A stretch of 64,000 nt of DNA from contig CAYVTU010000011.1 in NCBI GenBank assembly GCA_964454835.1, positions 26,243 to 90,242 on the forward strand, read 5' to 3'. A program made the translations under genes and the position numbers. The notes under the pieces are model-generated. The model saw nothing but the letters and a program-made list of their open reading frames with translations, did no database searches and was not told where the DNA came from. The stretch is from an uncultured Brachyspira sp. GTDB lineage: Bacteria > Spirochaetota > JAAYUW01. This document shows positions 1-63,507 of the stretch, one piece after another; position 1 is the stretch's first letter, and every line of letters starts with the position of its first letter.

Positions 1-1180
1 CTATAGATATTAAATCTTCATTTTCAGTATAAATTGCAATAATTTGCCTGAGTTTTTTAACCATTTCTTTTTGTTCTTTTGAACTTATAGCTGAAAAAAG
101 TCGAGAAATTGATTTTAAAATATCTATTGAAGGATATTGATTTTTTTCTGCCAAAGCTCTTGAAAGGACAATATGCCCATCTAAGACTCCTCTTACTGTA
201 TCTGAAATTGGTTCATTTACATCGTCACCTTCTACAAGAACTGTATATATACCTGTTATACTTCCTCTATCTGAACAACCCGCTCTTTCAAAAATTTTAG
301 GTAATAAAGTAAAAACTGATGTAGGATACCCTCTTGTTGCAGGCGGCTCTCCAATCGATAAACCAATCTCTCTCTGAGCCCAGGCAAATCTTGTCATACT
401 ATCAACCATAAGTAAGACATCTTTTCCCAAATCTCGAAAATATTCTGCTATTGTTTGAGCGACATAGATAGATCTTACTCTTTCCAATGGTGAAGCGTCA
501 GAAGTTGCAACTACAACTACTGATCTTGAAAGACCTTCTTTTTGAAGAATATCTTCAATAAATTCTTTAACCTCTCTTCCTCTTTCACCAATAAGACATA
601 TGACATTTACATCGGCTTCTGTATAATGAGCAATCATCCCTAAAAGAGTGGATTTACCAACCCCTGAACCTGCAAATATACCTATTCTTTGACCTTTACC
701 AAGAGTCAAAGGTATATCAATAGCCTTGACTCCTACTGCCAATCTTGATTTTATTCTGCTTCGTTGAAGTGATGATGGAGCTTTATTGAATATAGGATAT
801 CTAGTCTGCGAATATATTTCACCAAGATTATCTATTGGGACACCCATCCCATTTAGAACTCTTCCAAGCAGTTTTTCGGAGACTGGTATTGTCAATGGTT
901 CACCAGTAGCAATAATTATCTGATTTGGTTCTATGCCTACCATATCTGAAAGAGGCATTAATAGCATTTCATTTTCATTAAATCCTACAACTTCTGCAGA
1001 GACAAAATGATCAAAATCATTAGGATCTTCTTTATTTTGAAATATTTTACAAATCTCCCCTACCTGAGCATAAGGACCTTTACCTTTTATTAAAAATCCT
1101 CTTACTTCTTTTACTCTACCTCTATATTTTATTGGATCTATGGTAGAAATAGTCTGTTCATATTTATCATATATAGACAT
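1..1180 (-). CDS. fliI: Flagellum-specific ATPase FliI. It is 3'-partial: the ORF runs off the window start and the C-terminal ~40 aa are missing.
   Basis: Manual translation from ATG at 1180 downward gives an uninterrupted frame to position 2. Walker A GSGVGKST and a Walker B-like LLMVDSMTRFA are present. It sits immediately downstream of fliH. Confidence 0.85.
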   Translation of the reverse strand, partial: MSIYDKYEQTISTIDPIKYRGRVKEVRGFLIKGKGPYAQVGEICKIFQNKEDPNDFDHFVSAEVVGFNENEMLLMPLSDMVGIEPNQIIIATGEPLTIPVSEKLLGRVLNGMGVPIDNLGEIYSQTRYPIFNKAPSSLQRSRIKSRLAVGVKAIDIPLTLGKGQRIGIFAGSGVGKSTLLGMIAHYTEADVNVICLIGERGREVKEFIEDILQKEGLSRSVVVVATSDASPLERVRSIYVAQTIAEYFRDLGKDVLLMVDSMTRFAWAQREIGLSIGEPPATRGYPTSVFTLLPKIFERAGCSDRGSITGIYTVLVEGDDVNEPISDTVRGVLDGHIVLSRALAEKNQYPSIDILKSISRLFSAISSKEQKEMVKKLRQIIAIYTENEDLISI

Positions 1181-1182
1181 TA

Positions 1183-2115
1183 TTACTTTGACTCCTCTAT
1201 CATTCTTTTTTTGATAGGCATAAGCTCGAGTATCTTATCCTCAATTTCCTTTAATTGGAGTGAAATTCTAGCATCAATTTCACCAAAATCTGTTTCTATG
1301 ATACATCCACCTCTTTCTATGGATGAATCTTCTAGGAATTGTATACCTTCTAATCCTTCGATCATCCTTATAAAATCCTCTTTATGCTTCGTAGCCATAC
1401 CTATATCTTCTAGATTTACTCTTATAATAACATTCTTAGAGCCTTTTACTTTTTTTAGTGCTTCAACAACATTGTTAATAATTACAGTTTTTTGATTCTC
1501 GGTAATTATTTTAATAATTTTTTTTACTATCAATAATACTATCGAAACAATTTGATATTCTGTTCCTTCTATTATTTCCTGTCTCTTTGCTATTACTTCA
1601 GAAATTATCTTATGCATTCTCTCTATAAGATGTTTAACTTCTTCTGAACCTTTATTAAATCCATCTTCATAACCCTGGTCATAACCTTGTTTTTTGTTTT
1701 CTTCAATTATCTCTTCACTCTTTTTTTCAGCAGTTTCTATTATCTGCTTCGCTTCTATTTTTGATTCATCTAGAATTCTTTGAGCTTCTTGCTTTATTTT
1801 TTCAATTTCTATATTTGCTTGAGCTTTTGATTCCTTTATTTTTGCAAATGCCAGATCTTCTGCTTTTTGGATTATCTGTTTTGCTTCAATATCTGCTTGA
1901 TTTTTAAGATTTTCATACTCTATTTTCCATTCTTGTTTCAATCTATCGATCTCAAGTTTTACATCTTCAATAGAAGGTCCCCTATAAACAGAAGTTTCAC
2001 CTGTTTTTTCTGTCCCTTCGGTGACTTCTTCTTTTGATTTCAATTTTGGTGGGGGAATTATATATTTTTTGTCAATTTTTCTAATTTCATCATTTTTTAG
2101 GACATTTTTCGCCAT
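1183..2115 (-). CDS. fliH: Flagellar assembly protein FliH (export ATPase regulator)
   Basis: Position between fliG and fliI. The central region is E/K-rich coiled coil, typical of long FliH forms. Its stop lies 2 nt before the fliI ATG. Confidence 0.6.
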   Translation of the reverse strand: MAKNVLKNDEIRKIDKKYIIPPPKLKSKEEVTEGTEKTGETSVYRGPSIEDVKLEIDRLKQEWKIEYENLKNQADIEAKQIIQKAEDLAFAKIKESKAQANIEIEKIKQEAQRILDESKIEAKQIIETAEKKSEEIIEENKKQGYDQGYEDGFNKGSEEVKHLIERMHKIISEVIAKRQEIIEGTEYQIVSIVLLIVKKIIKIITENQKTVIINNVVEALKKVKGSKNVIIRVNLEDIGMATKHKEDFIRMIEGLEGIQFLEDSSIERGGCIIETDFGEIDARISLQLKEIEDKILELMPIKKRMIEESK

Positions 2116-2130
2116 TTTTCATTCCTAAAA

Positions 2131-3162
2131 TTAATATATTATTTCATCTTCACTACCACGAGATATAGTGATTTCACCCGATTGTTCAAGTTTTCTTATA
2201 ATAGATACAATCTTTGATTGAGCTTCTTCAACATCCTTTAATCTTATTGGACCCATAAATTGCATGTCTTCTTTAAGCATTGTTGCTCCTCTTTTCGACA
2301 TGTTTCTGAATATTTTATCTTGAACTTCTGCTTCAACATTTTTTAATGCTTTTGCCAGATCGTTTGTATCTACTTCTCTAAGCAATCGCATAACTGAACG
2401 ATCATCAAGTTGAACAATATCTTCAAATACAAACATGTTTTTCTTGATCTCTTCTGCAAGCTCAGGATCTTCTTCTTCAAGTTTTTCAAGAATATTTTTC
2501 TGAGTAGTTTGATCTGAAGCATTAAGAATATTTACAGCAGCAGGAACGCCACCAACACTTGCAAACTCTTCTGAAGCTATAGCAGAGATCTGTCTTTCAA
2601 GAATTCTTTCAACTTCTCTTACTATTTCTGGTGATGTTCTATCCATTTTTGCTATTCTTCTAGTAACATCAGCCTGTAAAGTCGGATTTAACTGCTGCAA
2701 AATAGTGGCCGCTTTCTTTTGATCTAAATAAGATAAAATCAAAGAAATAGTTTGAGGATGTTCATTTTGAATAAAGTTTATAAGATGTTGTGGATCTGTT
2801 CTTCTAGCAAACTCAAATGGTCTTACAGCCATAGTAGTAGTTAGTCTGTTAATGATGTCTACTGCTTTTTGTGATCCAAGAGCCTTTTCAAGTAATTCTT
2901 TAGCATAATCTAAGCCACCAGTAGTAATAAAATCCTGAGCCATCATTAATTCCTGGAATTCCATTAGGACTTTATCTCTTTCTTCTGGATCTACCTTTTC
3001 TATTCTTGCTATTTCATAAGTAATTGAATCAACTTCTTCTTCTTTTAAATATTTTAATACCTGAGATGCTACTTCAGAACCTAAGGTAACAAGAAATATT
3101 GCTGCTTTTTTCTTTCCTGTTAGTTTTGTCTTTTCTTTTGTTTTAGGTGCAGCTTTTCCCAT
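2131..3162 (-). CDS. fliG: Flagellar motor switch protein FliG
   Basis: 343 aa. FliG-like N-terminal and C-terminal domains are recognisable. It sits in the conserved fliF-fliG-fliH order. Confidence 0.85.
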   Translation of the reverse strand: MGKAAPKTKEKTKLTGKKKAAIFLVTLGSEVASQVLKYLKEEEVDSITYEIARIEKVDPEERDKVLMEFQELMMAQDFITTGGLDYAKELLEKALGSQKAVDIINRLTTTMAVRPFEFARRTDPQHLINFIQNEHPQTISLILSYLDQKKAATILQQLNPTLQADVTRRIAKMDRTSPEIVREVERILERQISAIASEEFASVGGVPAAVNILNASDQTTQKNILEKLEEEDPELAEEIKKNMFVFEDIVQLDDRSVMRLLREVDTNDLAKALKNVEAEVQDKIFRNMSKRGATMLKEDMQFMGPIRLKDVEEAQSKIVSIIRKLEQSGEITISRGSEDEIIY

Positions 3163-3227
3163 TTTATTCCTCTTTTCTAATTTTTTTATTAAAACATTAT
3201 AATTTAGTTTAACAAAATCAATCAGTT

Positions 3228-4940
3228 TTAACCTACATCCTCAGCAAGCCATGTTCTAATAAGTTTAGCGACCTCTTCTGGATGTTCTCTTGCAACATTA
3301 ATTGCATTTTCCTGCATTTCAAGTCTAGCCTTTTCTTCCATAGAAAGCTCAACTTCAATTCCTTCTTTTTCAGCTGCTCTAAGGGCTTTTTCTCTAAGTT
3401 CCTGCTGCTTTCTGAGAAGTTCTTCTTCTTTAAGTTTTTTCCTTCTTTGAACTTCGGCTGAAATCACTCTATATAATACAATTATAAGAAGAAAAACTAA
3501 AATAGAAACAAATGATGTTATCAAAGCTTTTCTCAATAAATCTTTTCTTTTAATTATAGCATCTTCAGCTGCAAATTCTGCTTCATGGTTAAATGCTATA
3601 TTTTGAACTGTTACTAAATCACCCCTTGCCTTATCATATCCAATTGCACCTTTAACAACTTCTTCTATTTTACTTATATCTTCTTCTGAAAGTGGAGTAT
3701 ATTTTCTTTTGTATCCTAGTTTAGCTTTATCTACTACTAGATTACCTTTGCTATCTACCTCTATTTCCCATAATCCATCTACCATTACTGAACAGGATAT
3801 TTTCCCTATTTGATAAGGAGTCATAGAAGAAACAACTTTTTCTCTTGATAATTCATAATTTTTAGTCTGTTGATTTTCGTTTACAACAACCGAACTTGGT
3901 AAAAGTTCTTTATATCCTGGTGGGACATTAGGTTCTGTCCCTGGAGGACCTTCTGGTATTGTCTGAGGACCTTTATATTCTTTTTGTATACTCTGTTCAG
4001 AAATTGTGACATTTGGAACAACTACTGAGTCATCATAAGGGGTATTTGGGTTATCAGGTTTTATAACAACAGGAATTATTTTATTTGCTTCACTTTGTAC
4101 TTGATCGAATCTAATATCAATATCTAATTGAATATCTATCTTATTTTTACCTATTATTTTTTGAAGTTGTTCTCGAATTCTTTGCTCAATTTTTACTCTT
4201 TCTCTTTCTTTAATCTGAAGCTGTTGTTTAACTATTTCAAGATATGCTGCATTATCCTGAGAACTAAAATCAGAAACTATATTACCCGAAGGATCTGTTA
4301 TTACGACATTTTCTTCTTTAAGTCCAGGTATTCCAAAAGCAACAAGTTTCTTTATACCTTCAATTTGCTTCCTGTTTTCAAAAAGATTAGAATAAGGTTT
4401 TGGTATAATAGTTAAAGAAGCAGTAATTTCCTGTGTATTAGAGGTAAAAAGACTTTCTTTAGGCCATGCTATATTCAAATAACATTCCTCGACCCCATCA
4501 AGGAGTTTTAATTGCCTTTCAATTTCACCTTTTATTGCTCTTTTAAGATTAACATCTCTTTCAAAATCAGTTGTTGTCCATTTTTGAGTATCAAATAATT
4601 CCCAGCCTGTCACATTATTAGGAATTATTCCCTGCTGTCCTAGTTTCATTCTTAAAGTTTGAGCAGTTTTTTGATCCTTGACTATTATATATTTATCATC
4701 CTTAGTAGAAAAATCAGTATTCAAATCCTGCAAAGCCTTTGTAACTTTTGCATAATCTTCAGGTGAAAGTGGTTTTTGAAATAATAGAGTCTTATCGGGT
4801 TTTGATGAAAATCCTATTATAATTATTAATGCAATAACCACAACACCAATTACAGAAAATATTATGATTTTTTGTGTTTGATTTAATTTTGACAAATTTG
4901 ATGAGAAAAACTCACCAATTTTTTTGAAAAAATCTGCCAT
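3228..4940 (-). CDS. fliF: Flagellar MS-ring protein FliF
   Basis: About 570 aa, with an N-terminal TM segment, a large periplasmic region and a C-terminal TM. The likely start is ATG at 4940 (MADFFKK). The ORF track extends to a TTG at 4952 through a G9 run. Confidence 0.85.
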   Translation of the reverse strand: MADFFKKIGEFFSSNLSKLNQTQKIIIFSVIGVVVIALIIIIGFSSKPDKTLLFQKPLSPEDYAKVTKALQDLNTDFSTKDDKYIIVKDQKTAQTLRMKLGQQGIIPNNVTGWELFDTQKWTTTDFERDVNLKRAIKGEIERQLKLLDGVEECYLNIAWPKESLFTSNTQEITASLTIIPKPYSNLFENRKQIEGIKKLVAFGIPGLKEENVVITDPSGNIVSDFSSQDNAAYLEIVKQQLQIKERERVKIEQRIREQLQKIIGKNKIDIQLDIDIRFDQVQSEANKIIPVVIKPDNPNTPYDDSVVVPNVTISEQSIQKEYKGPQTIPEGPPGTEPNVPPGYKELLPSSVVVNENQQTKNYELSREKVVSSMTPYQIGKISCSVMVDGLWEIEVDSKGNLVVDKAKLGYKRKYTPLSEEDISKIEEVVKGAIGYDKARGDLVTVQNIAFNHEAEFAAEDAIIKRKDLLRKALITSFVSILVFLLIIVLYRVISAEVQRRKKLKEEELLRKQQELREKALRAAEKEGIEVELSMEEKARLEMQENAINVAREHPEEVAKLIRTWLAEDVG

Positions 4941-4941
4941 A

Positions 4942-4950
4942 CCCCCCCCC
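4942..4950 (-). repeat. Homopolymeric G9 (C9 on the + strand) directly upstream of, or at, the fliF start
   Basis: Read directly: ccccccccc at 4942-4950, in an otherwise very AT-rich region. Confidence 0.9.
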
Positions 4951-5053
4951 AATAAAAAAGCAGATATTATCTATCTAATTTATTAACCTTTACTCCCTTA
5001 AAGGTTATAAAATGTTATTTTTTATATTATTTTGCTCTTTATTCTTTACTTCC

Positions 5054-5082
5054 TTATATAGATTTTACTTATATAGATTTTA
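5054..5082. repeat. Tandem direct repeat in the fliE-fliF intergenic region: 2 x TTATATAGATTTTA with a 15-nt period
   Basis: Read directly at 5054-5067 and 5069-5082. Confidence 0.8.
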
Positions 5083-5130
5083 ATTTAATTTTTTTTTATT
5101 TCTATTAATTTCATCTTTTTTCTAATTTTT

Positions 5131-5508
5131 TTAACGAATATTAATCAATTCTTTATAACCAGTAATTAATTTATTAATAACTGACTTTGTAAGATTTAAT
5201 GCAATTTCTGCTTCTTTAGCAGCTATTGTAACATCGTCTATATTTGTGTTATCGGGATCTTCAATCAATTGTTGTTGAAGTAGTTCTGCATTGACAATTG
5301 CCATATTTGTATCATTGATGGATTTTGTCAAATAATTCAAAAAAGTCGGTGAACTAGAGTTATCTTTTTCAATATAATTAAAATGCTTTGGTGAAGTCGA
5401 ATTCATCTTAACTTTATGACCCGACGGATTAATAGAAGAAACATTTAAAACATTTGGAGCTTCGACTCCTCTGACAATACTTGAAATTGAATTAAAATAC
5501 TGTTGCAT
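5131..5508 (-). CDS. fliE: Flagellar hook-basal body protein FliE
   Basis: The C-terminal region matches the FliE consensus (…AIVNAELLQQQLI…AKEAEIALNLTKSVINKLITGYKELINI). It lies between flgC and fliF. A GGGGGAGGGG SD precedes the ATG. Confidence 0.7.
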   Translation of the reverse strand: MQQYFNSISSIVRGVEAPNVLNVSSINPSGHKVKMNSTSPKHFNYIEKDNSSSPTFLNYLTKSINDTNMAIVNAELLQQQLIEDPDNTNIDDVTIAAKEAEIALNLTKSVINKLITGYKELINIR

Positions 5509-5609
5509 CCCCTCCCCCTACTAAAAAAAATAAATCATTTTATATATTATAAAAATATAAAAATGTTTAACATAATTTTTTAAACAATTTCATATTTATA
5601 TATAAAACA

Positions 5610-6059
5610 TTATTTTAATATGTCAATACTTTTCATATATAATTGTTTAGCATTTGTTATAACAACACTATTTGCTTCGTAACTTCTTGAAGCACTTATT
5701 AAATCTGTCATTTCTTTTACAACGTTTACATTAGGCATCATCACATATCCTTTTTTAGGACCAGATTGAATTGCATCGGGATGATTAGGGTCCCATACAA
5801 GTCTAAAAGGGGACTCATCTGCTTCTATTTTTACAACTTTAACACCTTTCCCAATGCTATTTTCATAACCAGGCGGGGTAAATGGAGAAAGAAATTGAGG
5901 TTGTTCATCATAAGTTCTGAAAATAACCATCTTCCTTTTATATGCTCCTCCCTCAGGAGTTCTAGTTGTATTTGCGTTTGCAATATTGTTAGCAATAACA
6001 TCCATTCTTAGTCTTTGAGCTGACAATCCAGTAGAAGCTATATTAAATGCTCCAAGCAT
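5610..6059 (-). CDS. flgC: Flagellar basal-body rod protein FlgC
   Basis: N-terminus MLGAFNIASTGLSAQRLRMDVIANNIANANTT is the canonical FlgC rod motif. Confidence 0.85.
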   Translation of the reverse strand: MLGAFNIASTGLSAQRLRMDVIANNIANANTTRTPEGGAYKRKMVIFRTYDEQPQFLSPFTPPGYENSIGKGVKVVKIEADESPFRLVWDPNHPDAIQSGPKKGYVMMPNVNVVKEMTDLISASRSYEANSVVITNAKQLYMKSIDILK

Positions 6060-6087
6060 GATTTTACCTTTTTAGAGATTTAACTAA

Positions 6088-6095
6088 ATATCGGT
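6088..6095 (-). promoter_or_regulatory. Possible sigma28-type -10 element (ACCGATAT) upstream of flgC; the -35 element is weak
   Basis: The minus strand reads tACCGATATtt about 30 nt upstream of the flgC ATG. It matches the -10 seen at fliS and at the 13711 gene, but there is no good TAAA at N15. Confidence 0.25.
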
Positions 6096-6157
6096 AAAAT
6101 AGAAAATTTGATAATAGAAAAATTAAAAATATTTTTAAATTTTGAAAAATTTTTAAT

Positions 6158-7084
6158 TTATAAATTTTGAAGTTTTTTAATCATTAACGCTATTTTAGAT
6201 GCTACCTCTGTATTATTATATATTAAAGACATATTTGATTTTAAAGTTCTACCTTTACTTAAAAAAGAAAGCTTTTCCAGTAAATATGGTGTAACATCCT
6301 TTCCAGATATGTTTTTATTCTCTAATTCAATTATTGAAGAATCAATTATTTTTGAAATTTCAGAAAAAAGTATCTCATCTTTTTCTGGTATTGGATTAAC
6401 AACAAGAATAGTACTTGTCATTCCTATATTTTTATTAAAGATATATGAATTGGCAATTTGCTTTTCATCTTCTGCTACCAGTTGAAGTTTAATGCCTGAA
6501 TATCTAGAATAAAAAGCTGGAAAATCATCTGTTTTGTAGCCAATAACAGGGATTTCAAAGGTTTCTAAAATTTCTATTGTCTTAGGAATATCTAAAATCG
6601 ACTTACAACCCGCGCATACAACGATGCCAGAATATTTAGATAAGGCATGAACATCAGCAGAAATATCAAAAGTTTTTTCTGCATTTCTATGAACTCCACC
6701 AATACCACCAGTAGCAAAACAGTCAATTCCAACCAGGCTAGCAAGATATAATGTTGCTGCTACTGTTGTTCCTGCATTAAGTTTTTTTGAATAGCAATAT
6801 CCAAGATCTTTTGTAGATGATTTAAATGATTTAGAAGAATTTTTAGCAAGCATCTCTATTTCATCATCACTTAATCCAATTTTTGGAATCCCTTGAATAA
6901 TTCCAATGGTAGCTGGAATAACACCATATTCTCGGGCAATTTTCTGGCATTTCTTAGCAACTTCAAGATTTGTGGGATATGGTAATCCATGGGTAATTAT
7001 AGTTGATTCCAATGCAATAATAGGTTTTTTTTCATCTAATCCATTTTTTACTTCATCTGAAATCTTTAAAAATTCCATTTTCAT
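6158..7084 (-). CDS. psuG: Pseudouridine-5'-phosphate glycosidase
   Basis: IIALESTIITHGLPYPTNLEVAKK…IPATIGIIQG matches the PsuG (indigoidine synthase A-like) N-terminal signature. Confidence 0.8.
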   Translation of the reverse strand: MKMEFLKISDEVKNGLDEKKPIIALESTIITHGLPYPTNLEVAKKCQKIAREYGVIPATIGIIQGIPKIGLSDDEIEMLAKNSSKSFKSSTKDLGYCYSKKLNAGTTVAATLYLASLVGIDCFATGGIGGVHRNAEKTFDISADVHALSKYSGIVVCAGCKSILDIPKTIEILETFEIPVIGYKTDDFPAFYSRYSGIKLQLVAEDEKQIANSYIFNKNIGMTSTILVVNPIPEKDEILFSEISKIIDSSIIELENKNISGKDVTPYLLEKLSFLSKGRTLKSNMSLIYNNTEVASKIALMIKKLQNL

Positions 7085-7196
7085 TTTTTACCTTCTTAAC
7101 AATATTAACTTCTTACAATTTTATATTATTTCCTTAATGATGAAATTAAAATTTAATTACTTTCAAGTATATTATAAACTTTCATAACTAATATTT

Positions 7197-8623: not shown

Positions 8624-8809
8624 AATTTTTTCCTATTTTGTAATCAATTGTCTTCAGAAAATATTTTAATTTAATTTATCAAAAAAGAAAGAGTTGATAA
8701 AATTTTTATGATAAGTTTTAATGATATTATTGTCTTATTTAGTTATTTTTCTGCAATTAAAATTTAATATAAGATAATTTAATGAGGTCTTATAAATTAT
8801 TAATTAGAT

Positions 8810-9150
8810 TGGAGGTGGGGAGAGTCGAACTCCCGTCCTACAAGGTTTGATAATCGATATCTACATGCTTATGAATTTTTTAATCTCGTTTATTTCAGGG
8901 AAAATCCCAAACCTGAAATAAGCCAGTCTGTAAATTTACTTTCATCTTCCAGACAGAGATGAAAGTTTGCTTCTGTTGTCGGGGGAAGTTCTGAAACCAG
9001 AAGCAATCTCAGACTTCCCTGCTGCGCTTAATTAGGCAGCAAGTGCTAATGAATTGTTGTCAATTCGTTTTTTTCTGCGGTTTTAAGACATACAGAAAGT
9101 CTGCATGCAATCCATTACCTTGCCTTACAGTCGAAACCAGATTCACCCCC
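8810..9150 (-). ncRNA. ssrA: tmRNA (transfer-messenger RNA)
   Basis: On the minus strand the 5' end GGGGGTGAATCTGGTTTCGAC… pairs with the 3' end …GGACGGGAGTTCGACTCTCCCCACCTCCA (a tRNA-like acceptor and T-arm; CCA is not encoded). An internal tag reading frame ends …GACAACAATTCATTAGCACTTGCTGCCTAA, i.e. …DNNSLALAA-stop. Confidence 0.85.
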
Positions 9151-17322: not shown

Positions 17323-18327
17323 CTAATGAAAATCTAAAAAATTAGTTTCAATATTCTTCATAAGCTCTATGACTTTTTGATAAAATTCGAAAGAGCTGTT
17401 GGTAATCTTTTTTAAAAAACCATATGCAGTATAAAAATCTTTTCTTCCATCATAATATGCCATAGCTATATAATAATTGAAGTAATCTTTATAAATAGAA
17501 CTATCTAAAATATCTATCTTTGGATATATTAATAAAATAATATGTTCATAATCTTTTTTCTCAAAATATATTGATGAAATTAAAAAATATGAATTATCAA
17601 ATAGTGAATCCTGAGGTTCTAATTTATAGATTAGATAAAATAAATTATCTAGTGCAACATCTACATTGCCTAAGACTATTTGAGTTTTAGCCATATAATA
17701 ATAAGAATATGTCTTTATTTCTGAGTTCGTTGATAACTTTGATAATGCAAAATAAGATGATGCAACGTTATATTGTTTTAGGTTAAAATAGCATACTCCA
17801 AGATAATAAGCAATTTTGGAAGCACCAATTTGTTGATATAATAATGGTTCGCTTTCTTTACCTTTAAAAAAATAATTTATTGCATCTTGGTACATACCAT
17901 TAGCAAACAAAAAAAAAGCAATATCAAAACTGGATGTTGAATTTGATGAATTTGAAATATTAGAATTCTCTAAAAATGAATCCGTAAAACCTGGATTTAT
18001 AGGAATATTGTTGTTTATAGAAATATAATAGACAATACTTCCCTTTCTAGCATTATCATAAAACTCTATAGTTGTTTGTCCGGTTTTTTTTGGCTTAAAA
18101 TGAAAGGCAACAGTATCATATGTGATATCTTTAGATACTAATGTTAGATATTCTTTGTCAATAGTCTGAATTATCCATGAATTACTATCAAACTGAATAG
18201 AAAAAATTGAATTTAATAGAACACTTTTTTGGTACTTTGATTCCTGAGCAGTTGAAAAAAAAGAAAAAATAAATAATTCAATTAAGATTATTAAGATAAA
18301 TGAAAAAGAAATTTTATGCTTTTTCAA
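17323..18327 (-). CDS. Secreted/lipoprotein-like protein with TPR-like repeats
   Basis: Signal peptide followed by Y/A-rich helical repeats (…YYMAKTQIVLGN…). Confidence 0.4.
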   Translation of the reverse strand: MKKHKISFSFILIILIELFIFSFFSTAQESKYQKSVLLNSIFSIQFDSNSWIIQTIDKEYLTLVSKDITYDTVAFHFKPKKTGQTTIEFYDNARKGSIVYYISINNNIPINPGFTDSFLENSNISNSSNSTSSFDIAFFLFANGMYQDAINYFFKGKESEPLLYQQIGASKIAYYLGVCYFNLKQYNVASSYFALSKLSTNSEIKTYSYYYMAKTQIVLGNVDVALDNLFYLIYKLEPQDSLFDNSYFLISSIYFEKKDYEHIILLIYPKIDILDSSIYKDYFNYYIAMAYYDGRKDFYTAYGFLKKITNSSFEFYQKVIELMKNIETNFLDFH

Positions 18328-18336
18328 CCTAATTCC

Positions 18337-33399: not shown

Positions 33400-33596
33400 G
33401 CAAATTCCTTTTATATCTTTACTTAACCTTTTTTACTATTTTTATAAAATATTGCAACTGAAAACTTTTAATAATTTTTAATAATTAGAACTAAAAGACA
33501 AAAATAATTTGTATATTTATTTTTTTATATAGTTTAAATTTTACTATTATTCTTAATAAATTTTGACGATAAAATAGATAAGAAAAGGAGTTTGAT

Positions 33597-33770
33597 ATGA
33601 TAACCATGGAAGGTGTAAATGAATATCAAAACTCTCGAATTATATTAAATGCACAAATTTATTTCATCAAAAAAATGCTTGATGTTACAAAAGAACAACA
33701 AACAGTAATTCGAGAAAGTTTAAAAGACCCCCCACAAAATCCTGATTCAACTTTTACAAAAGTAGTTTAA
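33597..33770 (+). CDS. Small hypothetical protein (57 aa)
   Basis: ATG preceded by AAAAGGAG at -14 to -7. Clean 57-codon ORF in an otherwise empty 500-nt intergenic region. Confidence 0.3.
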   Translation: MITMEGVNEYQNSRIILNAQIYFIKKMLDVTKEQQTVIRESLKDPPQNPDSTFTKVV

Positions 33771-33818
33771 ATTTTAAATTTTACTCTTAATTTTCTAAGT
33801 ACCATTAAAGGGGGATAA

Positions 33819-33889
33819 ATGGTACAATTTAATTGCAAAATTCCTACAATGTGTTATTTTTGAAGTAGCAGTAAAGAATATACTGCTAC
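33819..33889 (+). promoter_or_regulatory. Leader-like mini-ORF (MVQFNCKIPTMCYF, 14 aa) with a strong SD, followed 2 nt later by hairpin GTAGCAGT-loop-ACTGCTAC and a short U tract. It lies 13 nt upstream of tsaD.
   Basis: Read directly: AAAGGGGGATAAATG at 33808-33821, stop TGA at 33861-33863, hairpin at 33865-33889. Confidence 0.35.
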
Positions 33890-33901
33890 TTTAATATTAA
33901 T

Positions 33902-36005: not shown

Positions 36006-36078
36006 TTTTTAATTTTTATCTTAATTATAATAGGGTAACTTTGTTATTTTTGTTACCCTAATTTTTTTACTTTGTTTT

Positions 36079-36270
36079 TTAAGAAGCTAAAGAAAAAACA
36101 TTGCAAATATTTGCACATTTTCCACATTTTATACATTTACTTTCATCGATTCTTGGTGCTTTAAAGGGAGAATCTTGTAGTATTGCTCCAACAGGACAAA
36201 TATTAACTGCGGGACAATGATGATTTTTTGGACAAAATTGTTCTTTTACTTGAATTTTCTTCATATTCAC
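36079..36270 (-). CDS. Small ferredoxin-like Fe-S protein
   Basis: 63 aa, with CIKCGKCANIC (CxxCxxCxxxC) and a second Cys cluster CPKNHHCPAVNICP. Confidence 0.5.
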   Translation of the reverse strand: MNMKKIQVKEQFCPKNHHCPAVNICPVGAILQDSPFKAPRIDESKCIKCGKCANICNVFSLAS

Positions 36271-36420
36271 TGGATTTCCTTAAATTAATTATTATTTTTA
36301 TAAATATATAAAATAATAAATTTTAAGGCAATATCAAATTAAATTGAAAAATGCAGTGGTGATTACATAAAAATTACTAATAACATTTTTAAATATCAAT
36401 AATCATATATTAAGATAAAA

Positions 36421-36473
36421 TAAAAAAGGCTACCTCATAAGATTTGAGGCAGCCTAATATTGATTTTTTTTTA
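36421..36473. terminator. Rho-independent terminator (bidirectional-looking) downstream of the OTCase gene
   Basis: A run followed by hairpin GGCTACCTCA-taagattt-GAGGCAGCC, then a T run (gattttttttt). Confidence 0.5.
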
Positions 36474-36489
36474 TTATTGAAATAAAAGT

Positions 36490-37470: not shown

Positions 37471-37607
37471 TTTTTTCTCCTTGTTGATTTTTGTTTAAAG
37501 CAAATCTATGTACTATGTCAAAAACATATTCAACTGCCATAAATTAATTACAATCTTAAAATTTAATGTCAAGATTATTAACAAATATTAGATTTTATAA
37601 AGAAAAA

Positions 37608-37679
37608 TAGCGGCGAAGGGATTTGAACCCCTGACCAATCGGATATGAGCCGAGTGCTCTACCACTGAGCTACGCCGCC
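37608..37679 (-). tRNA. tRNA-Met (anticodon CAU). Could alternatively be a lysidine-modified tRNA-Ile2.
   Basis: Reverse complement: GGCGGCGTAGCTCAGTGGTAGAGCACTCGGCTCATATCCGATTGGTCAGGGGTTCAAATCCCTTCGCCGCTA. It has a cloverleaf with a 7-nt anticodon loop CTCATAT and a T-loop TTCAAAT. CCA is not encoded. Confidence 0.85.
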
Positions 37680-37752
37680 ATTTTGTTTAATGACTAGTAG
37701 AAATTAACACAATCAATATTATTGTCAAATATTTTATTAATTTAGTAAGATA

Positions 37753-57895: not shown

Positions 57896-58034
57896 TTTTA
57901 TAAAAATCGGGTTTAATAGAAATAGGAATGAGAAAAAATTAAATAATATTTCTAAATCTGAAAAAAAAGAATTCAATAATATAAGTAAGTTATTAATATT
58001 TTATCTTTTGTATATAAATCAAAAATGAGGTCTT

Positions 58035-58421
58035 ATGCAAACAATTTTATCAATAGCTTTAGGTGGAGCATTAGGAGCAGTCTTAAGATTTTTAATATCC
58101 CGCTTTATAGGCTCCCTAAATATATCATCTTTCCCTTATGGTACATTCACTGTAAATATGATTGGATGTTTTATAATAGGATTTCTTTACACAGTTTTTG
58201 AAAAAACTCTTGCTTCAACTATGACTCGTGCCTTTTTTCTTATAGGATTAATAGGTGCTTTTACTACTTTTTCAACATATATTCTCGAAACATTAAACTT
58301 ATTCCGAGATAATGAAATTTTACTGGGATTTTTAAATATTTTTTTAAGTAATTTATTCGGATTTATCAGTCTTATTTTGGGGATAATTTTAGCTAGAATT
58401 ATGTTTTTGGGTAAAATATAA
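58035..58421 (+). CDS. crcB: Fluoride channel CrcB/Fluc
   Basis: 128 aa, four TM helices, N-terminus typical of CrcB (…ALGGALGAVLRF…GTFTVNMIGCFIIGF). Confidence 0.8.
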   Translation: MQTILSIALGGALGAVLRFLISRFIGSLNISSFPYGTFTVNMIGCFIIGFLYTVFEKTLASTMTRAFFLIGLIGAFTTFSTYILETLNLFRDNEILLGFLNIFLSNLFGFISLILGIILARIMFLGKI

Positions 58422-58454
58422 TATTACTCAAAATAAATAAATAAAGGAATCCAG

Positions 58455-58787
58455 ATGAAATTGGCAGAAAATTCAATGTTATTAAGAATTTTTATTGGTG
58501 AATCAGATATGTACAAAGGGAAACCTCTATATGAATCAATAGTTCAAAAAGCAAGAGAATTGCATCTTGCAGGAGCAACAGTAATTAGAGGAATTTTAGG
58601 TTATGGGGCTGATAGTAGAATGCATAGAGCTAAATTTTTAGATCTTTCAGAGGATTTACCTATAATTATAGAAATTGTAGACAGTGAAGAAAAACTAAAT
58701 ATGCTAATTCCATTTCTTGATACCACTGTAACTGAAGGTCTTATAACTATGGAAGAAGTTAAAGTAATAAAATATAGACATACTTAA
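58455..58787 (+). CDS. DUF190/PII-like protein commonly co-encoded with crcB
   Basis: 110 aa. Adjacent to and co-oriented with crcB. Confidence 0.55.
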   Translation: MKLAENSMLLRIFIGESDMYKGKPLYESIVQKARELHLAGATVIRGILGYGADSRMHRAKFLDLSEDLPIIIEIVDSEEKLNMLIPFLDTTVTEGLITMEEVKVIKYRHT

Positions 58788-58859: not shown

Positions 58860-60423
58860 ATGGAGAATATTATGCAACCAATTAAAAATGCCATAACAGA
58901 AGGAAGGCTTATAAATTTAGAAGGCTTATCAAAAGATGAAGTCTTAAAAACATTATCTTTTGCTATTGAAAAAAGTAAGCAAACTCCCCCTGAATTAGAT
59001 ATTTATAAATCTATCTTAGATAGAGAGATGATTACAAATACATATCTTGGATTTAATATTGCATGTCCTCATACCAGAATTCCATGGGAAGGAGAGATTT
59101 TATGTTCTATAGGCTGGAATCATGAAGGTATATTATATAATTCAGCGACAAACGATAGTGCTAAGCTAGTTTTTCTTTTTATTATTCCTAAGAATAAAAG
59201 CAATGAATATTTAAATATGATTGCCTCATTAATTAAATTTTTAATGAAATTTGAAAAATTGAGAGATTTCGAGAATATTTATGATTTAAATGCTATCCAA
59301 TCAAGAATACTTGAATGGATTTATATTATAGAAAACCCAGAGAATGATGAAATTGATACTATTTCTGCCCACGCTAACATGTCTTTAATCATTGATATGA
59401 TACTTCCAGACATAAAGGAGTTAATTGAAGCAAAAAGATTTAGTAAATTACAAAAGTTTATAAATGAACAGGATTCAGTAGAAATAGCAGAAATCATGAA
59501 CTGCTTAAATATTGAATCATCAACTATAATATTTAGAATTTTATCAAAATCAAAAGCAGAGGAAATTTTTTCTTTGCTTGAAAGTGAAGCTCAGAACAAT
59601 TTAATCAATAATCTAGCAAAAGAAGAGATTGTCAGATAATATATAGCATGGCTTCTGATGATAGGACAATGCTATTAGAAGAATTACCAGTAAAAATTGT
59701 TCAGCAAATTCTTGATCTTTTTGATAAAAATGAAAGAAAAAAGGTTCTTACTCAATTAAACTACCAGGAAGATAGTATTGGTAGATTATTTTCTAATAAA
59801 TATATCTCAGTATACTCATATGTAATGGTTAAAGATGTATTGGAGCATATCAGAAAGAAAGGAATTGATTCTGAAAGTATAGAAATGATATATGTTACAA
59901 ATGAAAAAGGTAAGCTAATTGATGATCTTTCACTAAGGAAAATAATTCTTGCAAATCCTGAAACTCCATTGGAAGAAATTTTTGATTGTCATTTTGTTTC
60001 CCTATACTCCAATCAAGATAAAGAAGAAGCTGCCCAGATATTTAAAAAATATGATATGTATGCTATGCCAGTAGTTGATTCTGATGGTATGCTTATTGGA
60101 ATAGTTACTAATGATGATATAATAGATGTAGTTGATGAGGAAGCAACTGAAGACTTTCACAAAGGTAGTGCATTTTACTATTAGAAAAAAAATTTTTAAA
60201 TACACCAATAATGGATCTATGGAAAAGCAGGATTTCCTGGTTTATTGTTCTTATATTTATTAATATTTTTTCTGGTGCTGGTCTAGCTCATTTTGAAAAC
60301 TTAATCCAATCTGTGGTCGCTCTTGTATTTTTTCTTCCTTTACTTGTAGACAGTGGAGGTAATGCTGGTGCTCAATCAGCAGGATCCAAAGAATTAATTT
60401 TCATTGAGACTACTCTTAAATAA
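58860..60423 (+). pseudogene. mgtE: Disrupted Mg2+ transporter gene mgtE with an N-terminal PTS EIIA-2-like domain. It is split over three frames and truncated in the TM domain.
   Basis: ORF1 has an EIIA-2-like core (…FNIACPHTR…LVFLFIIP…) plus the start of MgtE_N. ORF2 (59648-60184) continues MgtE_N plus the CBS pair in a different frame. ORF3 (60211-60423) begins the TM domain (…LLVDSGGNAGAQSA) and stops after 70 aa. Only 167 nt remain before the next gene. Confidence 0.55.
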
Positions 60424-60544
60424 TCAATAAAATAGGTTGTCGGAATTATTAATGAAGACCCATTCCCCAAAAAATTTGAGTAATAAATAAACCACCAATC
60501 ATTCCTATCAGGTAATATTGATTTTTATCCTATCCTTTCATTCT

Positions 60545-60572
60545 TTGACAAACAAAATAAAAGTAATATTTT
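60545..60572 (+). promoter_or_regulatory. Candidate sigma70 promoter for the MFS gene: TTGACA-N16-TATTTT
   Basis: Read directly. An AAAGGAG SD lies 7 nt before the ATG at 60591. Confidence 0.3.
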
Positions 60573-60590
60573 TAATAAAAGGAGTCACAA

Positions 60591-61823
60591 ATGGTAAATA
60601 CAGACGAGGCTCTTATTCAACAAAGAAAAAGAGCAATTTTCTTAATTATTATTTTTGGTATCATTAGCTTACTCGGAGATATAATTTATGAAGGAGCAAG
60701 AAGCATATATGGACCTTATACCAAATCTATTGGAATGGATATTGCTCTTGTTGGCTTAATTACTGGTCTCGCAGAATTTTTTGGCTACTTTATTAGACTG
60801 GTTTCAGGATATCTATCCGATAAATCCAGAAATTACTGGTTATTTACTATAATAGGTTATTTCTTGCTTATTACCGTACCATTAATGGCGATATCTTCAA
60901 CCTGGCAAATTATCAGTATATTTATTATCTTTGAAAGAATTGGTAAAGCCATTCGATCCCCAGCAAAAGACACAATTTTATCTTCTGCTACGAAACATGT
61001 TGGCACTGGCTTTGGATTTGCCATACATGAGGCAATGGATCAGATAGGAGCAGTCATTGGACCTCTAGCTTTTAGCTTAATTCTTCTATTGACTAAAAAA
61101 AATGGAAGTGAAATAATCGGCTATAAAAATGCTTTTCTTTCAATGCTTTTACCATTTGCTATTTTGATGATCTTTCTACTCTTAGCAAAAGTGAAAGTAC
61201 CTCATCCTGATAAACTTGAGATTGTTGATGAAAAAATAACAGAAAAATTGTCAAAAACATTCTGGTTATACTCATTCTTTACAATATTCACAACTATGGG
61301 ATTTATAACTTTCGCAATCATAGGTTATTATTTCAAAGAAAAAAATATATTAACCGATCCTCAAATACCATTTTTCTATGCTATAGGTATGGGTATAGAT
61401 GCTGTTGCTGCTTTAATAATAGGAAAAATATATGATAAAATGAAAGAAAAATATCAAAATTCCAGTTCGGGACTAAATGTTCTTATTACAATACCATTAT
61501 TTACAATATTAATACCATTTTTTGCATTCAAAGGCAATTTTATTACTGCAATTATAAGTATATTAATCTGGGGTATTGTCATGGGTTGTCATGAAACAAT
61601 CATGAAATCAGCAATTGCTGATTTGACTCACTTGAAGAAAAGAGGAACAGGTTATGGAATTTTTAACACATTTTATGGACTTTCTATATTTGCAGCGAGT
61701 TCTCTTTTTGGATTTTTATATAAATTTAATATCAACCTTATTATTATAGCTATTATTATTTTTCAATTAATCTCAATTGTCATATATTTTATTATGATAA
61801 AAAACATAAAGAAAAATATTTGA
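60591..61823 (+). CDS. MFS-type transporter
   Basis: 410 aa, about 12 TM segments. Confidence 0.65.
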   Translation: MVNTDEALIQQRKRAIFLIIIFGIISLLGDIIYEGARSIYGPYTKSIGMDIALVGLITGLAEFFGYFIRLVSGYLSDKSRNYWLFTIIGYFLLITVPLMAISSTWQIISIFIIFERIGKAIRSPAKDTILSSATKHVGTGFGFAIHEAMDQIGAVIGPLAFSLILLLTKKNGSEIIGYKNAFLSMLLPFAILMIFLLLAKVKVPHPDKLEIVDEKITEKLSKTFWLYSFFTIFTTMGFITFAIIGYYFKEKNILTDPQIPFFYAIGMGIDAVAALIIGKIYDKMKEKYQNSSSGLNVLITIPLFTILIPFFAFKGNFITAIISILIWGIVMGCHETIMKSAIADLTHLKKRGTGYGIFNTFYGLSIFAASSLFGFLYKFNINLIIIAIIIFQLISIVIYFIMIKNIKKNI

Positions 61824-61845: not shown

Positions 61846-63507
61846 TTATTTTGTCTTCAAAAATAGAAAAGCAAGAAATTTAGATAGAAATAAGATAGAT
61901 AATATAATTAAATAAATGATTATTGAATCTTTTGTTCTTTCAAATTCATATTCTTGTTGATTTTTTATTGTGTAAATTTCATTTATATCAATATTTTTAA
62001 AATAAAGCTTTTCACCTTTTTTATATAAAATTGATGTACTGTTTGTTTCTAAAATTGATAGATTTTTTATTTTATCTGAGTTGATATTATTAATAAAATT
62101 AATTTGAGAATTATTATTAGTATTTTGCACTAACCCTGAAAGCATATAAAAGTAAATTATAATCTGAGGTTTTAATATAAATTTACTATTAATGTTTATA
62201 GGATAAATATTGGTATCTTTTTTAATATCATTATTAGTATTGTATAATAGATAGTTTTCAAGTATAGGATATCCTGCCTTTTTTAGCAGATTAATTGTTG
62301 CTATTAAATTTTCTTCATTTGCTCCAATTAAAAATCCCCCTGTTAATTCTGGATCAATAATTAAATCTATGTCATTATTGTTAAATTCAATATTAAAGGC
62401 AACAATCTTTTTATCCTTTCTTGATGATTTTCTAATTTTATTTATATATTCTGAAATCGAATCCCCCTGAAAAAAAGCTAAAATTGGAATTCTTTTATTT
62501 TCAATATTAAAACCTCTCTCTTTAAATTTATTAAAAAAACTTTGATAAATTGAATCATTAAAAATAATAGATTTTAAAATATCGGGATATTTACCTTTTG
62601 ATTCTACTAAAAAGGGGATATTTGCAAGATTTATATAATAAGTTTGATTGAATAAACTGACCTTTAAAAGAGTTTTTTCATTTGTTTTAATAATAATTGA
62701 GTTTTCATTATTAAAATCTATTTTAACTTTATCTTCTGCCTTTATAAAAAGCTTTTTTTTATCATATATTTCGACCTTAGGTAAATAGCTTCCTTTAGAT
62801 TTTAAAAATAAACAAAAAATCATATCTGAAAGCGGTTCATATATGATAGAAATTGGATAAAAAAAATCTTTATCTACCTTTCCCATCTCCACAATTTCAA
62901 ATTTTTTCTCAATATTCTGATTAGTATTATAGGGAAAAATATCTGTAAGAAATATTACTTTTTTATATTTATTCAATTTTTTACTTTTAATTAATAGGTC
63001 AACATCAAAATTAAAAGGAAAGAAACTCTTTTGAAAAATATCAGTAAAACTTTTAGGATTAATTATTTTTTTTAGTTTATTGATGGAAACTATCTCTGAT
63101 TTACAATTTTTCTCATTGAATGTTGCAGCAAATATATCAAAAGATTTATAATTATTTTTATGAGTATAATAATATAAAACAGCTTTATCAAATGGAGAGA
63201 TACCATTTATATCTGTTTTCATCATTGAATAAGAACCATCTATGACGAAAGCTACTCTATTTGAAATGTTAATGTTGATAATAAGATTGGCAAAGACAAG
63301 AGAAAGTATTATTGCTATTGTGATATCAAAGATAATATCATAAAACAATTGTATGAGTTTTAATAGAATCTGCTTGAAAGATTGACTTTTGAATCTCTGT
63401 AAAAAAGTAAAAGAATAAGATACTCTTTTTCTTCTTATTTGTCTTACAAATAAAAGTATAAAAATCGGTATAAGTAAAATAGATAAAATAATAAAAAAAT
63501 TATTCAT
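61846..63507 (-). CDS. Membrane-anchored vWA-domain protein (BatA-like)
   Basis: N-terminal TM helix, a basic patch (RRKRV) and a second TM as in BatA. MIDAS-like motif FVIDGSYSM. C-terminal TM. Confidence 0.45.
   Translation of the reverse strand: MNNFFIILSILLIPIFILLFVRQIRRKRVSYSFTFLQRFKSQSFKQILLKLIQLFYDIIFDITIAIILSLVFANLIININISNRVAFVIDGSYSMMKTDINGISPFDKAVLYYYTHKNNYKSFDIFAATFNEKNCKSEIVSINKLKKIINPKSFTDIFQKSFFPFNFDVDLLIKSKKLNKYKKVIFLTDIFPYNTNQNIEKKFEIVEMGKVDKDFFYPISIIYEPLSDMIFCLFLKSKGSYLPKVEIYDKKKLFIKAEDKVKIDFNNENSIIIKTNEKTLLKVSLFNQTYYINLANIPFLVESKGKYPDILKSIIFNDSIYQSFFNKFKERGFNIENKRIPILAFFQGDSISEYINKIRKSSRKDKKIVAFNIEFNNNDIDLIIDPELTGGFLIGANEENLIATINLLKKAGYPILENYLLYNTNNDIKKDTNIYPININSKFILKPQIIIYFYMLSGLVQNTNNNSQINFINNINSDKIKNLSILETNSTSILYKKGEKLYFKNIDINEIYTIKNQQEYEFERTKDSIIIYLIILSILFLSKFLAFLFLKTK

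Follow-up and report, generated by a model that had tools for sequence, protein, structure and literature searches.

Introduction

The canonical MgtE magnesium channel, represented by the Thermus thermophilus protein (TIGR00400, TC 1.A.26), consists of an N domain, CBS domains, and a transmembrane (TM) domain. Its gating is currently explained by cytosolic Mg2+ and ATP, which act on the N and CBS domains; according to Hattori and colleagues, these domains reportedly clamp the pore shut when both ligands are bound. EIIA-Ntr (PtsN) is a stand-alone regulator of the nitrogen phosphotransferase system (PTS-Ntr); it controls K+ transport in trans through TrkA and KdpD, and PTS-Ntr has already been tied to K+ homeostasis. 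Here, we describe a locus that joins an EIIA domain of the PtsN type to the beginning of MgtE, in a gene that is very likely no longer functional. The locus occupies positions 58,860 to 60,590 of a 64,000-nucleotide (nt) stretch of DNA, referred to below as the window, from an uncultured Brachyspira sp. (assembly GCA_964454835.1, contig CAYVTU010000011.1, positions 26,243 to 90,242 of the forward strand). The GC content of the window is ~27%, and the organism is an Exilispira-like spirochaete.

There is precedent for an EIIA domain on a transporter that is not itself part of the PTS. LacS carries a fused EIIA-Glc-like domain and is regulated by HPr~P (2023 review, PMC10710835). A 2025 classification of MgtE proteins across 27,742 genomes recognizes N-CBS-TM, CBS-TM, TM, and mini-N architectures and never mentions EIIA or PTS (10.1101/2025.05.26.656215). 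Our full-text searches of the literature, which paired MgtE with EIIA, PtsN, or PTS_EIIA_2, turned up no paper on the fusion.

A disrupted gene for an EIIA-linked MgtE

In our view, window positions 58872 to 60381 are a recently inactivated pseudogene of an MgtE magnesium channel with the architecture EIIA-N-CBS-TM, a reading to which we assign a probability of roughly 90%. The remnant is covered by three open reading frames (ORFs) on the forward strand, each in a different frame: ORF1 (58860-59639, frame 0), ORF2 (59648-60184, frame 2), and ORF3 (60211-60423, frame 1). Translation of ORF1 probably begins at the ATG at 58872 and not at 58860. This codon aligns with Met1 of the orthologue and has a Shine-Dalgarno-like GGAG (58862-58865) 6 nt upstream, the complete start element spanning 58862-58874; the public gene call P0001 (255 residues) begins at the same ATG.

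The reference for the reconstruction is the intact 621-residue protein P0272 from locus L006 of an Exilispira sp. metagenome-assembled genome, which was mapped onto the window with tblastn. L006 was found by a degenerate-pattern scan of GTDB species genomes and contains a single uninterrupted ORF of 621 codons, 71% identical to ORF1. Segment 1 of the pseudogene (58872-59630, frame 0) corresponds to orthologue residues 1-253 without gaps, at 71% identity. It encodes the EIIA-2 domain, a flexible linker, and the first half of the MgtE N domain, and its frame ends at a TAA codon (59637-59639). Frameshift 1 is a 1-nt deletion in the Ile253/Arg254 codons at ~59630/31 (within 59628-59635) that moves the coding sequence from frame 0 to frame 2. 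Segment 2 (59633-60171; residues 255-434, 77% identity) completes the N domain with its second half and adds the CBS pair and the plug/connecting helix. At frameshift 2 (60171/72, within 60168-60175), the third base of the Ala434 codon is lost, such that GCT ATT becomes GCATT and frame 2 gives way to frame 1. Segment 3 (60172-60381; residues 435-504, 84% identity) encodes TM1 and TM2 as far as GGNAGAQSA, and mgtE homology stops at 60381. The last 117 codons (residues 505-621, from the end of TM2 to TM5) are gone, with no counterpart at the locus or anywhere in the 64-kb window. At the nucleotide level, alignment with L006 and with L007, a further syntenic locus described below, shows exactly two single-base gaps within 58872-60381, and neither indel site is a long homopolymer.

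Profile searches recover the same order of domains, at E-values far below any chance expectation. Pfam identifies PTS_EIIA_2 at residues 18-151 of ORF1, followed by MgtE_N profile positions 3-55; ORF2 resumes with MgtE_N positions 61-102 and CBS (E = 9e-15), the MgtE_N domain being present but divided between the two frames. ORF3 has no Pfam match, PF01769 included, its five-helix TM domain being incomplete. The NCBIfam model TIGR00400 (450 positions) is matched in order by ORF1 (positions 8-84, 35.9 bits), ORF2 (90-262, 161.2 bits), and ORF3 (282-334, 56.7 bits), each scoring below the equivalog cut-off of 232.75, and none of the three covers positions 335-450. The intact orthologue P0272 scores 418 bits against this cut-off and matches positions 8-449. 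Lacking the end of TM2 and the whole of TM3-TM5, pore-lining helices among them, the window copy cannot give rise to a channel.

Much of this had been anticipated in an earlier note written from the sequence alone. Its three ORFs in three frames stand, with the start codon corrected, as does the in-frame fusion of the N-terminal domain to the start of the MgtE N domain and the assignment of the remaining MgtE sequence to two other frames. The note had also stated that the gene halts 70 residues into the TM domain with too little DNA left for the remainder. We find the same: the 206 nt between the end of mgtE homology and the next gene cannot hold the missing 117 codons. Its deduction of at least two frameshifts plus a deletion, and hence of a pseudogene, agrees with the two gaps and the missing residues 505-621. 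Alignment to intact orthologues, which the note had proposed, places P0272 colinear with the window over residues 1-504.

The EIIA domain

The N-terminal domain (58911-59312, forward strand) is assigned to the EIIA-2 (PtsN/IIA-Mtl) type from Pfam, from alignment with the solved structures 1a3a and 2a0j, and from an AlphaFold2 model compared by Foldseek. PTS_EIIA_2 (PF00359) matches ORF1 with 68.1 bits against a gathering cut-off of 27 (E = 1.1e-18), over positions 10-142 of 144. When ORF1 is searched against the sequences of solved structures, the best match is E. coli IIA-Mtl (1a3a, E = 3e-6), followed by PtsN (2a0j and 1a6j). His71 of the NIACPH motif (codon 59070-59072) aligns with phospho-His65 of IIA-Mtl and the matching His of PtsN, and Arg55 aligns with Arg49 of 1a3a. 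Tyr117 stands in place of the second active-site His (His111 of 1a3a; the His of GEHLEVL in 2a0j). In an alignment of 30 rows (A3), comprising the window ORF1 and 29 intact fused proteins, His71 is invariant, and Arg55 and Tyr117 are each at least 90% conserved.

The AlphaFold2 model of ORF1, computed from the 30-sequence family alignment, has a predicted local distance difference test (pLDDT) score of 88.9 and a predicted template modeling (pTM) score of 0.82. It places the last EIIA helix at residues 143-158 and a disordered linker at 164-172. The top Foldseek matches are the PtsN structures 1a6j, 2a0j, and 3urr (TM-score 0.70-0.73), 4gqx, and IIA-Mtl 1a3a, with target TM-scores of 0.65-0.75; weaker matches are to the EIIA-like cytoplasmic domains of SLC4 transporters (5jho, 8zle, 7x1i). 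Scores against the PtsN equivalog models fall far below their cut-offs (TIGR01419, 38.5 bits vs 138.7; NF008145, 27.7 vs 221). The domain is EIIA-2/PtsN-like in its predicted fold and putative active-site His, and is not a PtsN orthologue. The earlier note had called it EIIA(Ntr)-like and had singled out the His of NIACPH; the profile match, the solved-structure sequence search, and the predicted fold all agree.

The closest EIIA-only relatives of the fused domain, at 31%-34% identity, are a family of ~260-residue proteins (P0005 and P0007-P0024). These consist of an EIIA-2 domain and a C-terminal region of ~110 residues with no Pfam match, and they have the N-terminal motifs ALxEGRLIxL and ACPHARxP in common with the fused domain.

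The lesions in other samples and sister lineages

The lesions of the window recur in a different sample. L003, a contig from DRR438505, is 97.6% identical to the window over 2,468 nt, with 58 substitutions. Both missing bases, the junction between mgtE and a permease gene, and the relics of the latter (described below) are identical in the two, and the single-gap columns are common to the window and L003, against L006 and L007. L003 has also lost one nucleotide at window position 59308, which the window, L006, and L007 all retain. Furthermore, six contigs in JGI, NCBI, and Logan assemblies encode the exact ORF1 protein. By this comparison, the lesions are older than the split of the window and L003 strains. 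The reconstructed window protein is 75.7% identical to its L006 counterpart, and the corresponding values for its neighbors are 73.9% (major facilitator superfamily [MFS] transporter), 69.1% (TldD-like), 80% (DUF190), and 66% (CrcB). The window copy is no more diverged than these neighbors, and its inactivation is therefore recent relative to the species divergence.

The fully syntenic locus of a third lineage, L005 (Logan SRR23854659), has an mgtE copy at 4900-7100 whose lesions include a frameshift near residue 129, a nonsense codon at residue 142, a 25-residue deletion, a scrambled stretch with a stop near residue 293, and a frameshift at residue 598. None of these lesions is common to the window; the decay is heavier and independent, and the TM domain is retained. 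This copy has also diverged in excess, with 73.0% identity vs 78.9% for the MFS transporter. L007 (CAZOPR010000003.1), a GTDB representative labeled "uncultured Brachyspira sp.," has a lone in-frame TAG (6217-6219) where L006 encodes Asp73, within the EIIA domain, and the rest of its 621 codons are intact. The TAG is either a genuine nonsense allele or an error in the consensus. Intact genes are present in other relatives (P0272-P0278, 66%-100% identical to L006). The gene probably became dispensable in the clade: sister lineages have different lesions of their own, and the remnant in the window is probably in the course of removal by the usual bacterial deletion bias.

Selection and alternative explanations

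Comparison of the window with L003 gives 20 synonymous and 23 nonsynonymous differences in the pseudogene, a ratio per site (pN/pS) of ~0.28 obtained from small numbers and patchily distributed differences. The adjacent DUF190 gene has 10 and 1, respectively (pN/pS 0.03). All 6 differences downstream of frameshift 1 are nonsynonymous (0 synonymous), again small numbers. The window has five private substitutions at positions that are invariant in 37 intact proteins, all of them after frameshift 1, and the intact proteins themselves have 0-4 such changes (median ~1). These values, drawn from few and patchy differences, may point to relaxed constraint on the pseudogene.

The differences between the window and L003 fall into two dense patches (58895-58997 and 59246-59410) with ~10%-15% divergence, and the sequence between the patches is identical.

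Several observations weigh against the pseudogene reading and what we build on it. Its pN/pS is below 1 (0.28 overall and 0.07 in the linker/N segment). The strain differences are patchy, as would result from recombination tracts or from an assembly of mixed strains, and this weakens the selection test. The lesions are seen in assembled contigs, and we assume that JGI and Logan assembled the window's own sample independently. ORF1 keeps its start codon, its Shine-Dalgarno sequence, and all family-invariant residues, such that a residual soluble EIIA protein is possible. As for the ancestral protein proposed below, the second active-site His of canonical EIIA-2 domains is Tyr in the fused family, and searches of the window and of the flanks of loci L001-L019 found neither an HPr-like GxHxRP motif nor an HPr/NPr-like gene.

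The alternative that survives best, though we consider it improbable, is that the channel is dead and ORF1 (58872-59639; EIIA domain, linker, and half of the N domain) is kept as a soluble PtsN-like regulator. Its start codon and GGAG are intact, the model of its product is confident (pLDDT 88.9), and every lesion of the window lies downstream of the EIIA domain; in L003, however, the frameshift at 59308 cuts into the last EIIA helix (143-158). The pN/pS of the EIIA segment is 0.35 and the replacements are mostly conservative, yet pN/pS is ~10 times that of the neighboring DUF190 gene. ORF1 has no private substitutions at family-invariant positions, but it contains few invariant columns, so the absence of such changes is weak evidence. 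Finally, the EIIA part of L005 has both a frameshift and a nonsense codon and that of L007 is interrupted by TAG; the clade as a whole is therefore under no pressure to keep the EIIA domain.

Much less likely still is that the organism has an intact EIIA-mgtE gene and that the lesions are sequencing or assembly errors, a proviso that the earlier note had attached to all of them. The window does come from a metagenome assembly, and single-base indels are a common type of error, but these sites are not long homopolymers and the same ORF1 occurs on the six contigs mentioned above. In addition, ~3 kb of DNA is missing and has been replaced by recognizable relics of another gene. The lesions are not assembly errors, because both indels and the exact junction are found in the DRR438505 contig, which differs from the window at 58 other positions.

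The least credible explanation, a functional gene read through two programmed −1 ribosomal frameshifts or a split channel, can draw on two facts, that both shifts go the same way (frame 0 to 2 to 1) and that two strains share them, but it is rejected because neither site has an X XXY YYZ slippery heptamer, intact orthologues are read in a single frame, L003 bears a third, different frameshift, and TM3-TM5 are encoded nowhere in the window.

The intact EIIA-MgtE family

The fusion that the pseudogene preserves is intact in other organisms. A search with the L006 protein identifies at least 37 clusters at 90% identity, 612-685 residues in length, that combine PF00359, PF03448, PF00571, and PF01769; the search for EIIA-MgtE fusions in relatives that the earlier note had recommended thus returned the same architecture many times over. 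The clusters belong to Spirochaetota, Kiritimatiellia, Lentisphaerae, Fibrobacterota (Chitinispirillaceae/Fibrobacter), Hydrogenedentes, and WOR-3, and the database names of the fused proteins are "magnesium transporter" only. An exhaustive HMMER search finds a 625-residue Kiritimatiellae protein (P0004) that matches ORF1 over both domains. A genome scan yields single-ORF fusions of 615-640 residues in Hydrogenedentes, Lentisphaerae, Kiritimatiellia, and WOR-3; the single-ORF fusions amount to nine loci in five named lineages plus one probably mis-binned "Oceanicaulis" contig. Members from other phyla are 28%-35% identical to ORF1 across the EIIA and N domains.

A word-indexed search with ORF1 returned only the organism itself and one strain, and it was the exhaustive search and the genome scan that produced the fusions. 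Among the matches listed for the N-terminal 310 residues of P0004, which were crowded by unfused MgtE proteins of Kiritimatiellia and Lentisphaerae, there were no fusions.

In the MgtE core, the nearest neighbor of every fused protein is another fused protein, with the exception of P0287. This pattern fits a single origin of the fusion followed by its spread. Judged from these sequences, EIIA-fused MgtE is a rare, conserved, and uncharacterized subfamily, and the fusion is real rather than an artefact.

The nearest neighbor of P0287 is P0308, a 438-residue protein that has no EIIA domain and only a partial N domain and is 95% identical to P0287 in the MgtE core; either its gene call is truncated or EIIA was lost secondarily. 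A 485-residue MgtE, P0316, carries the label of a eukaryote assembly (Eukaryota sp. TZLM3-RCL).

Proposed function of the intact protein

The intact ancestral protein would have been a Mg2+-gated MgtE channel in which a flexible linker connected the EIIA domain with the first N-domain helix. Phosphorylation of His71 by HPr/NPr~P in a PTS/PTS-Ntr-type relay, or the binding of a partner, could bias the gating clamp formed by the N and CBS domains, and this input would couple Mg2+ influx to the metabolic state of the cell. More speculatively, the conserved replacement of His by Tyr at the second catalytic position may mean that the domain receives or senses phosphate and does not hand it on to an EIIB.

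We tentatively advance, at somewhat less than even odds, a broader interpretation of the pseudogene. The window would contain a fossil of an uncharacterized EIIA-N-CBS-TM class, a coherent clade by its MgtE core that extends over at least six named lineages, in which a phospho-His domain is wired onto the gating clamp and provides a phosphorelay input into magnesium homeostasis. Its disappearance from at least two, and possibly three, Exilispira-like lineages would in that case reflect a shift of niche or regulation after which this input, or the channel as a whole, was no longer needed. If this is true, a covalently attached PTS-type domain would add a signal of carbon, nitrogen, or energy status to MgtE gating. 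The wider value of the dead gene is that it exposes a rare, conserved MgtE subfamily with an invariant His of the phospho-acceptor type. Since the family is annotated generically and its architecture is absent from the 2025 classification, the intact proteins of Exilispira, Kiritimatiellia, and Hydrogenedentes are ready targets for study.

Deletion scar and neighborhood

The 206 nt that separate the end of mgtE homology from the MFS gene are not mgtE sequence but relics of another gene. In L006 and L007, a convergent two-gene ATP-binding cassette (ABC) operon, consisting of an ABC2_membrane permease and an ABC_tran ATPase, is located between mgtE and the MFS gene, which lies ~2.6 kb (L006) and ~3.3 kb (L007) downstream of mgtE. 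L005 has no ABC operon between the two genes, and no clear relics were found there. The window retains two pieces of the ABC-2 permease gene, both on the reverse strand. Relic A (60381-60455; orthologue residues 262-286) is joined directly to mgtE codon 504. It aligns by blastn between window 60394-60455 and L006 8201-8262 (82% nt identity), and by tblastn with 19 of 25 residues identical, reaching 60381 (SLIIPTTYFIDYLRVVSMKINSLDP). Relic B (60458-60517; orthologue residues 120-139) shows 84% nt identity between window 60455-60518 and L006 8626-8689, with 20 of 20 residues identical (YYLIGMIGGLFITQIFWGMG). The ABC ATPase gene is absent from the window locus.

Compared with L006, the scar resolves into three deletions. 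The first fused mgtE codon 504 to permease codon ~286, the second took out permease residues 140-261, and the third took out the permease N-terminus together with the ATPase gene and spacer. In total, ~3 kb of ancestral DNA (L006 7512-10508; the mgtE 3′ end and the ABC operon) has shrunk to a scar of ~240 nt. The locus itself is a routine but clean case of gene decay: comparison with intact relatives allows its two point frameshifts and three deletions to be ordered, and relics of the neighboring ABC transporter are still legible in the scar.

We considered whether the GGATCC sequence at the deletion junction (60382-60387) might stem from cloning and rejected this, since the junction is found in two natural samples and runs on into the ABC permease relics.

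The scar is bounded by an intact MFS transporter gene (60591-61823, forward strand; Pfam MFS_1), which is syntenic in L005, L006, and L007. Upstream, Pfam identifies Rce1-like, crcB, and DUF190 genes. The pseudogene is thus in the orthologous position of the clade (crcB, DUF190, the gene, and then MFS), with the same flanks in L005, L006, and L007. The genes crcB (fluoride channel) and DUF190 (window 58035-58787) lie directly 5′ of the pseudogene, or of its counterpart, in all four Exilispira-like loci. An Rfam scan of the window found no M-box and no fluoride riboswitch at gathering scores, and a promoter and terminator scan performed no better than on shuffled sequence.

Between the Rce1-like gene and crcB, L006 (3958-4905) and L007 (3853-5066) have genes for C_GCAxxG_C_C (150 residues) and LMWPc (139 residues) proteins. 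The window lacks both (57896-58034), and L005 retains the GCAxxG gene only.

The earlier note had seen in the loss of mgtE a sign of relaxed selection or genome reduction. The loss of several local genes and the losses in sister lineages support the proposal of genome reduction in part. The gene loss beside the mgtE scar is local and is not evidence of genome-wide decay, because the window as a whole is ~89% coding. As for other Mg2+ transporters, the 64-kb window contains no second mgtE, no credible CorA protein with a GMN motif, and no long ORF resembling MgtA, the last judged by N-terminal sequence and not profile-tested.

Other features of the window include a 553-residue ORF with no Pfam match (61846-63507, reverse strand); it is conserved in L005, and part of it is visible where L006 is truncated. 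The ORF adjoins DUF58/VWA and MoxR-type AAA genes in a Bat-like cluster. Positions 1-7100 hold a flagellar-like gene cluster, judged by N-terminal sequences only, that would fit a spirochaete. A tmRNA with the tag AEKNELTTIH (8809-9150) and a tRNA-Met (37607-37680) are both on the reverse strand, and non-coding gaps longer than 440 nt are found at 17896-18336, 33400-33901, and 36006-36489.

Comparison with known systems

The intact orthologue resembles canonical MgtE in that it matches TIGR00400 from end to end and has the MgtE_N, CBS, and MgtE TM domains. The fused proteins differ by an N-terminal extension of ~175 residues, made up of the EIIA-2 domain (~150 residues) and the linker. The window copy differs further, being twice frameshifted and without TIGR00400 positions 335-450.

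EIIA-type domains on or beside transporters are found elsewhere. The SLC4/band-3 anion exchangers have an EIIA-2-like fold in their cytoplasmic N-terminal domain, as reflected in the weak Foldseek matches, and bacterial fusions of Na_H_Exchanger with two EIIA domains (P0030) and of EIIA with PhoU (P0025) are present among the EIIA homologues. These involve other transporter families, and we see no evidence that the fusion events are of common descent. LacS is a precedent among non-PTS transporters: an EIIA-type domain is attached to it covalently, and phosphorylation of this domain modulates transport. Its domain has the EIIA-Glc fold and not that of EIIA-2, however, and is located at the C-terminus of a GPH symporter rather than on an ion channel.

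Compared with PtsN, the fused domain is covalently attached to the transporter, has Tyr117 in place of the second His, scores below the equivalog cut-offs, and lies at a locus without rpoN/ptsN-type gene context. The two have the same fold, and the His of the xIAxPH motif and the upstream Arg are conserved in the fused domain. They would also be alike in what they do, the likely role of the fused domain being, as for PtsN, the regulation of ion transport.

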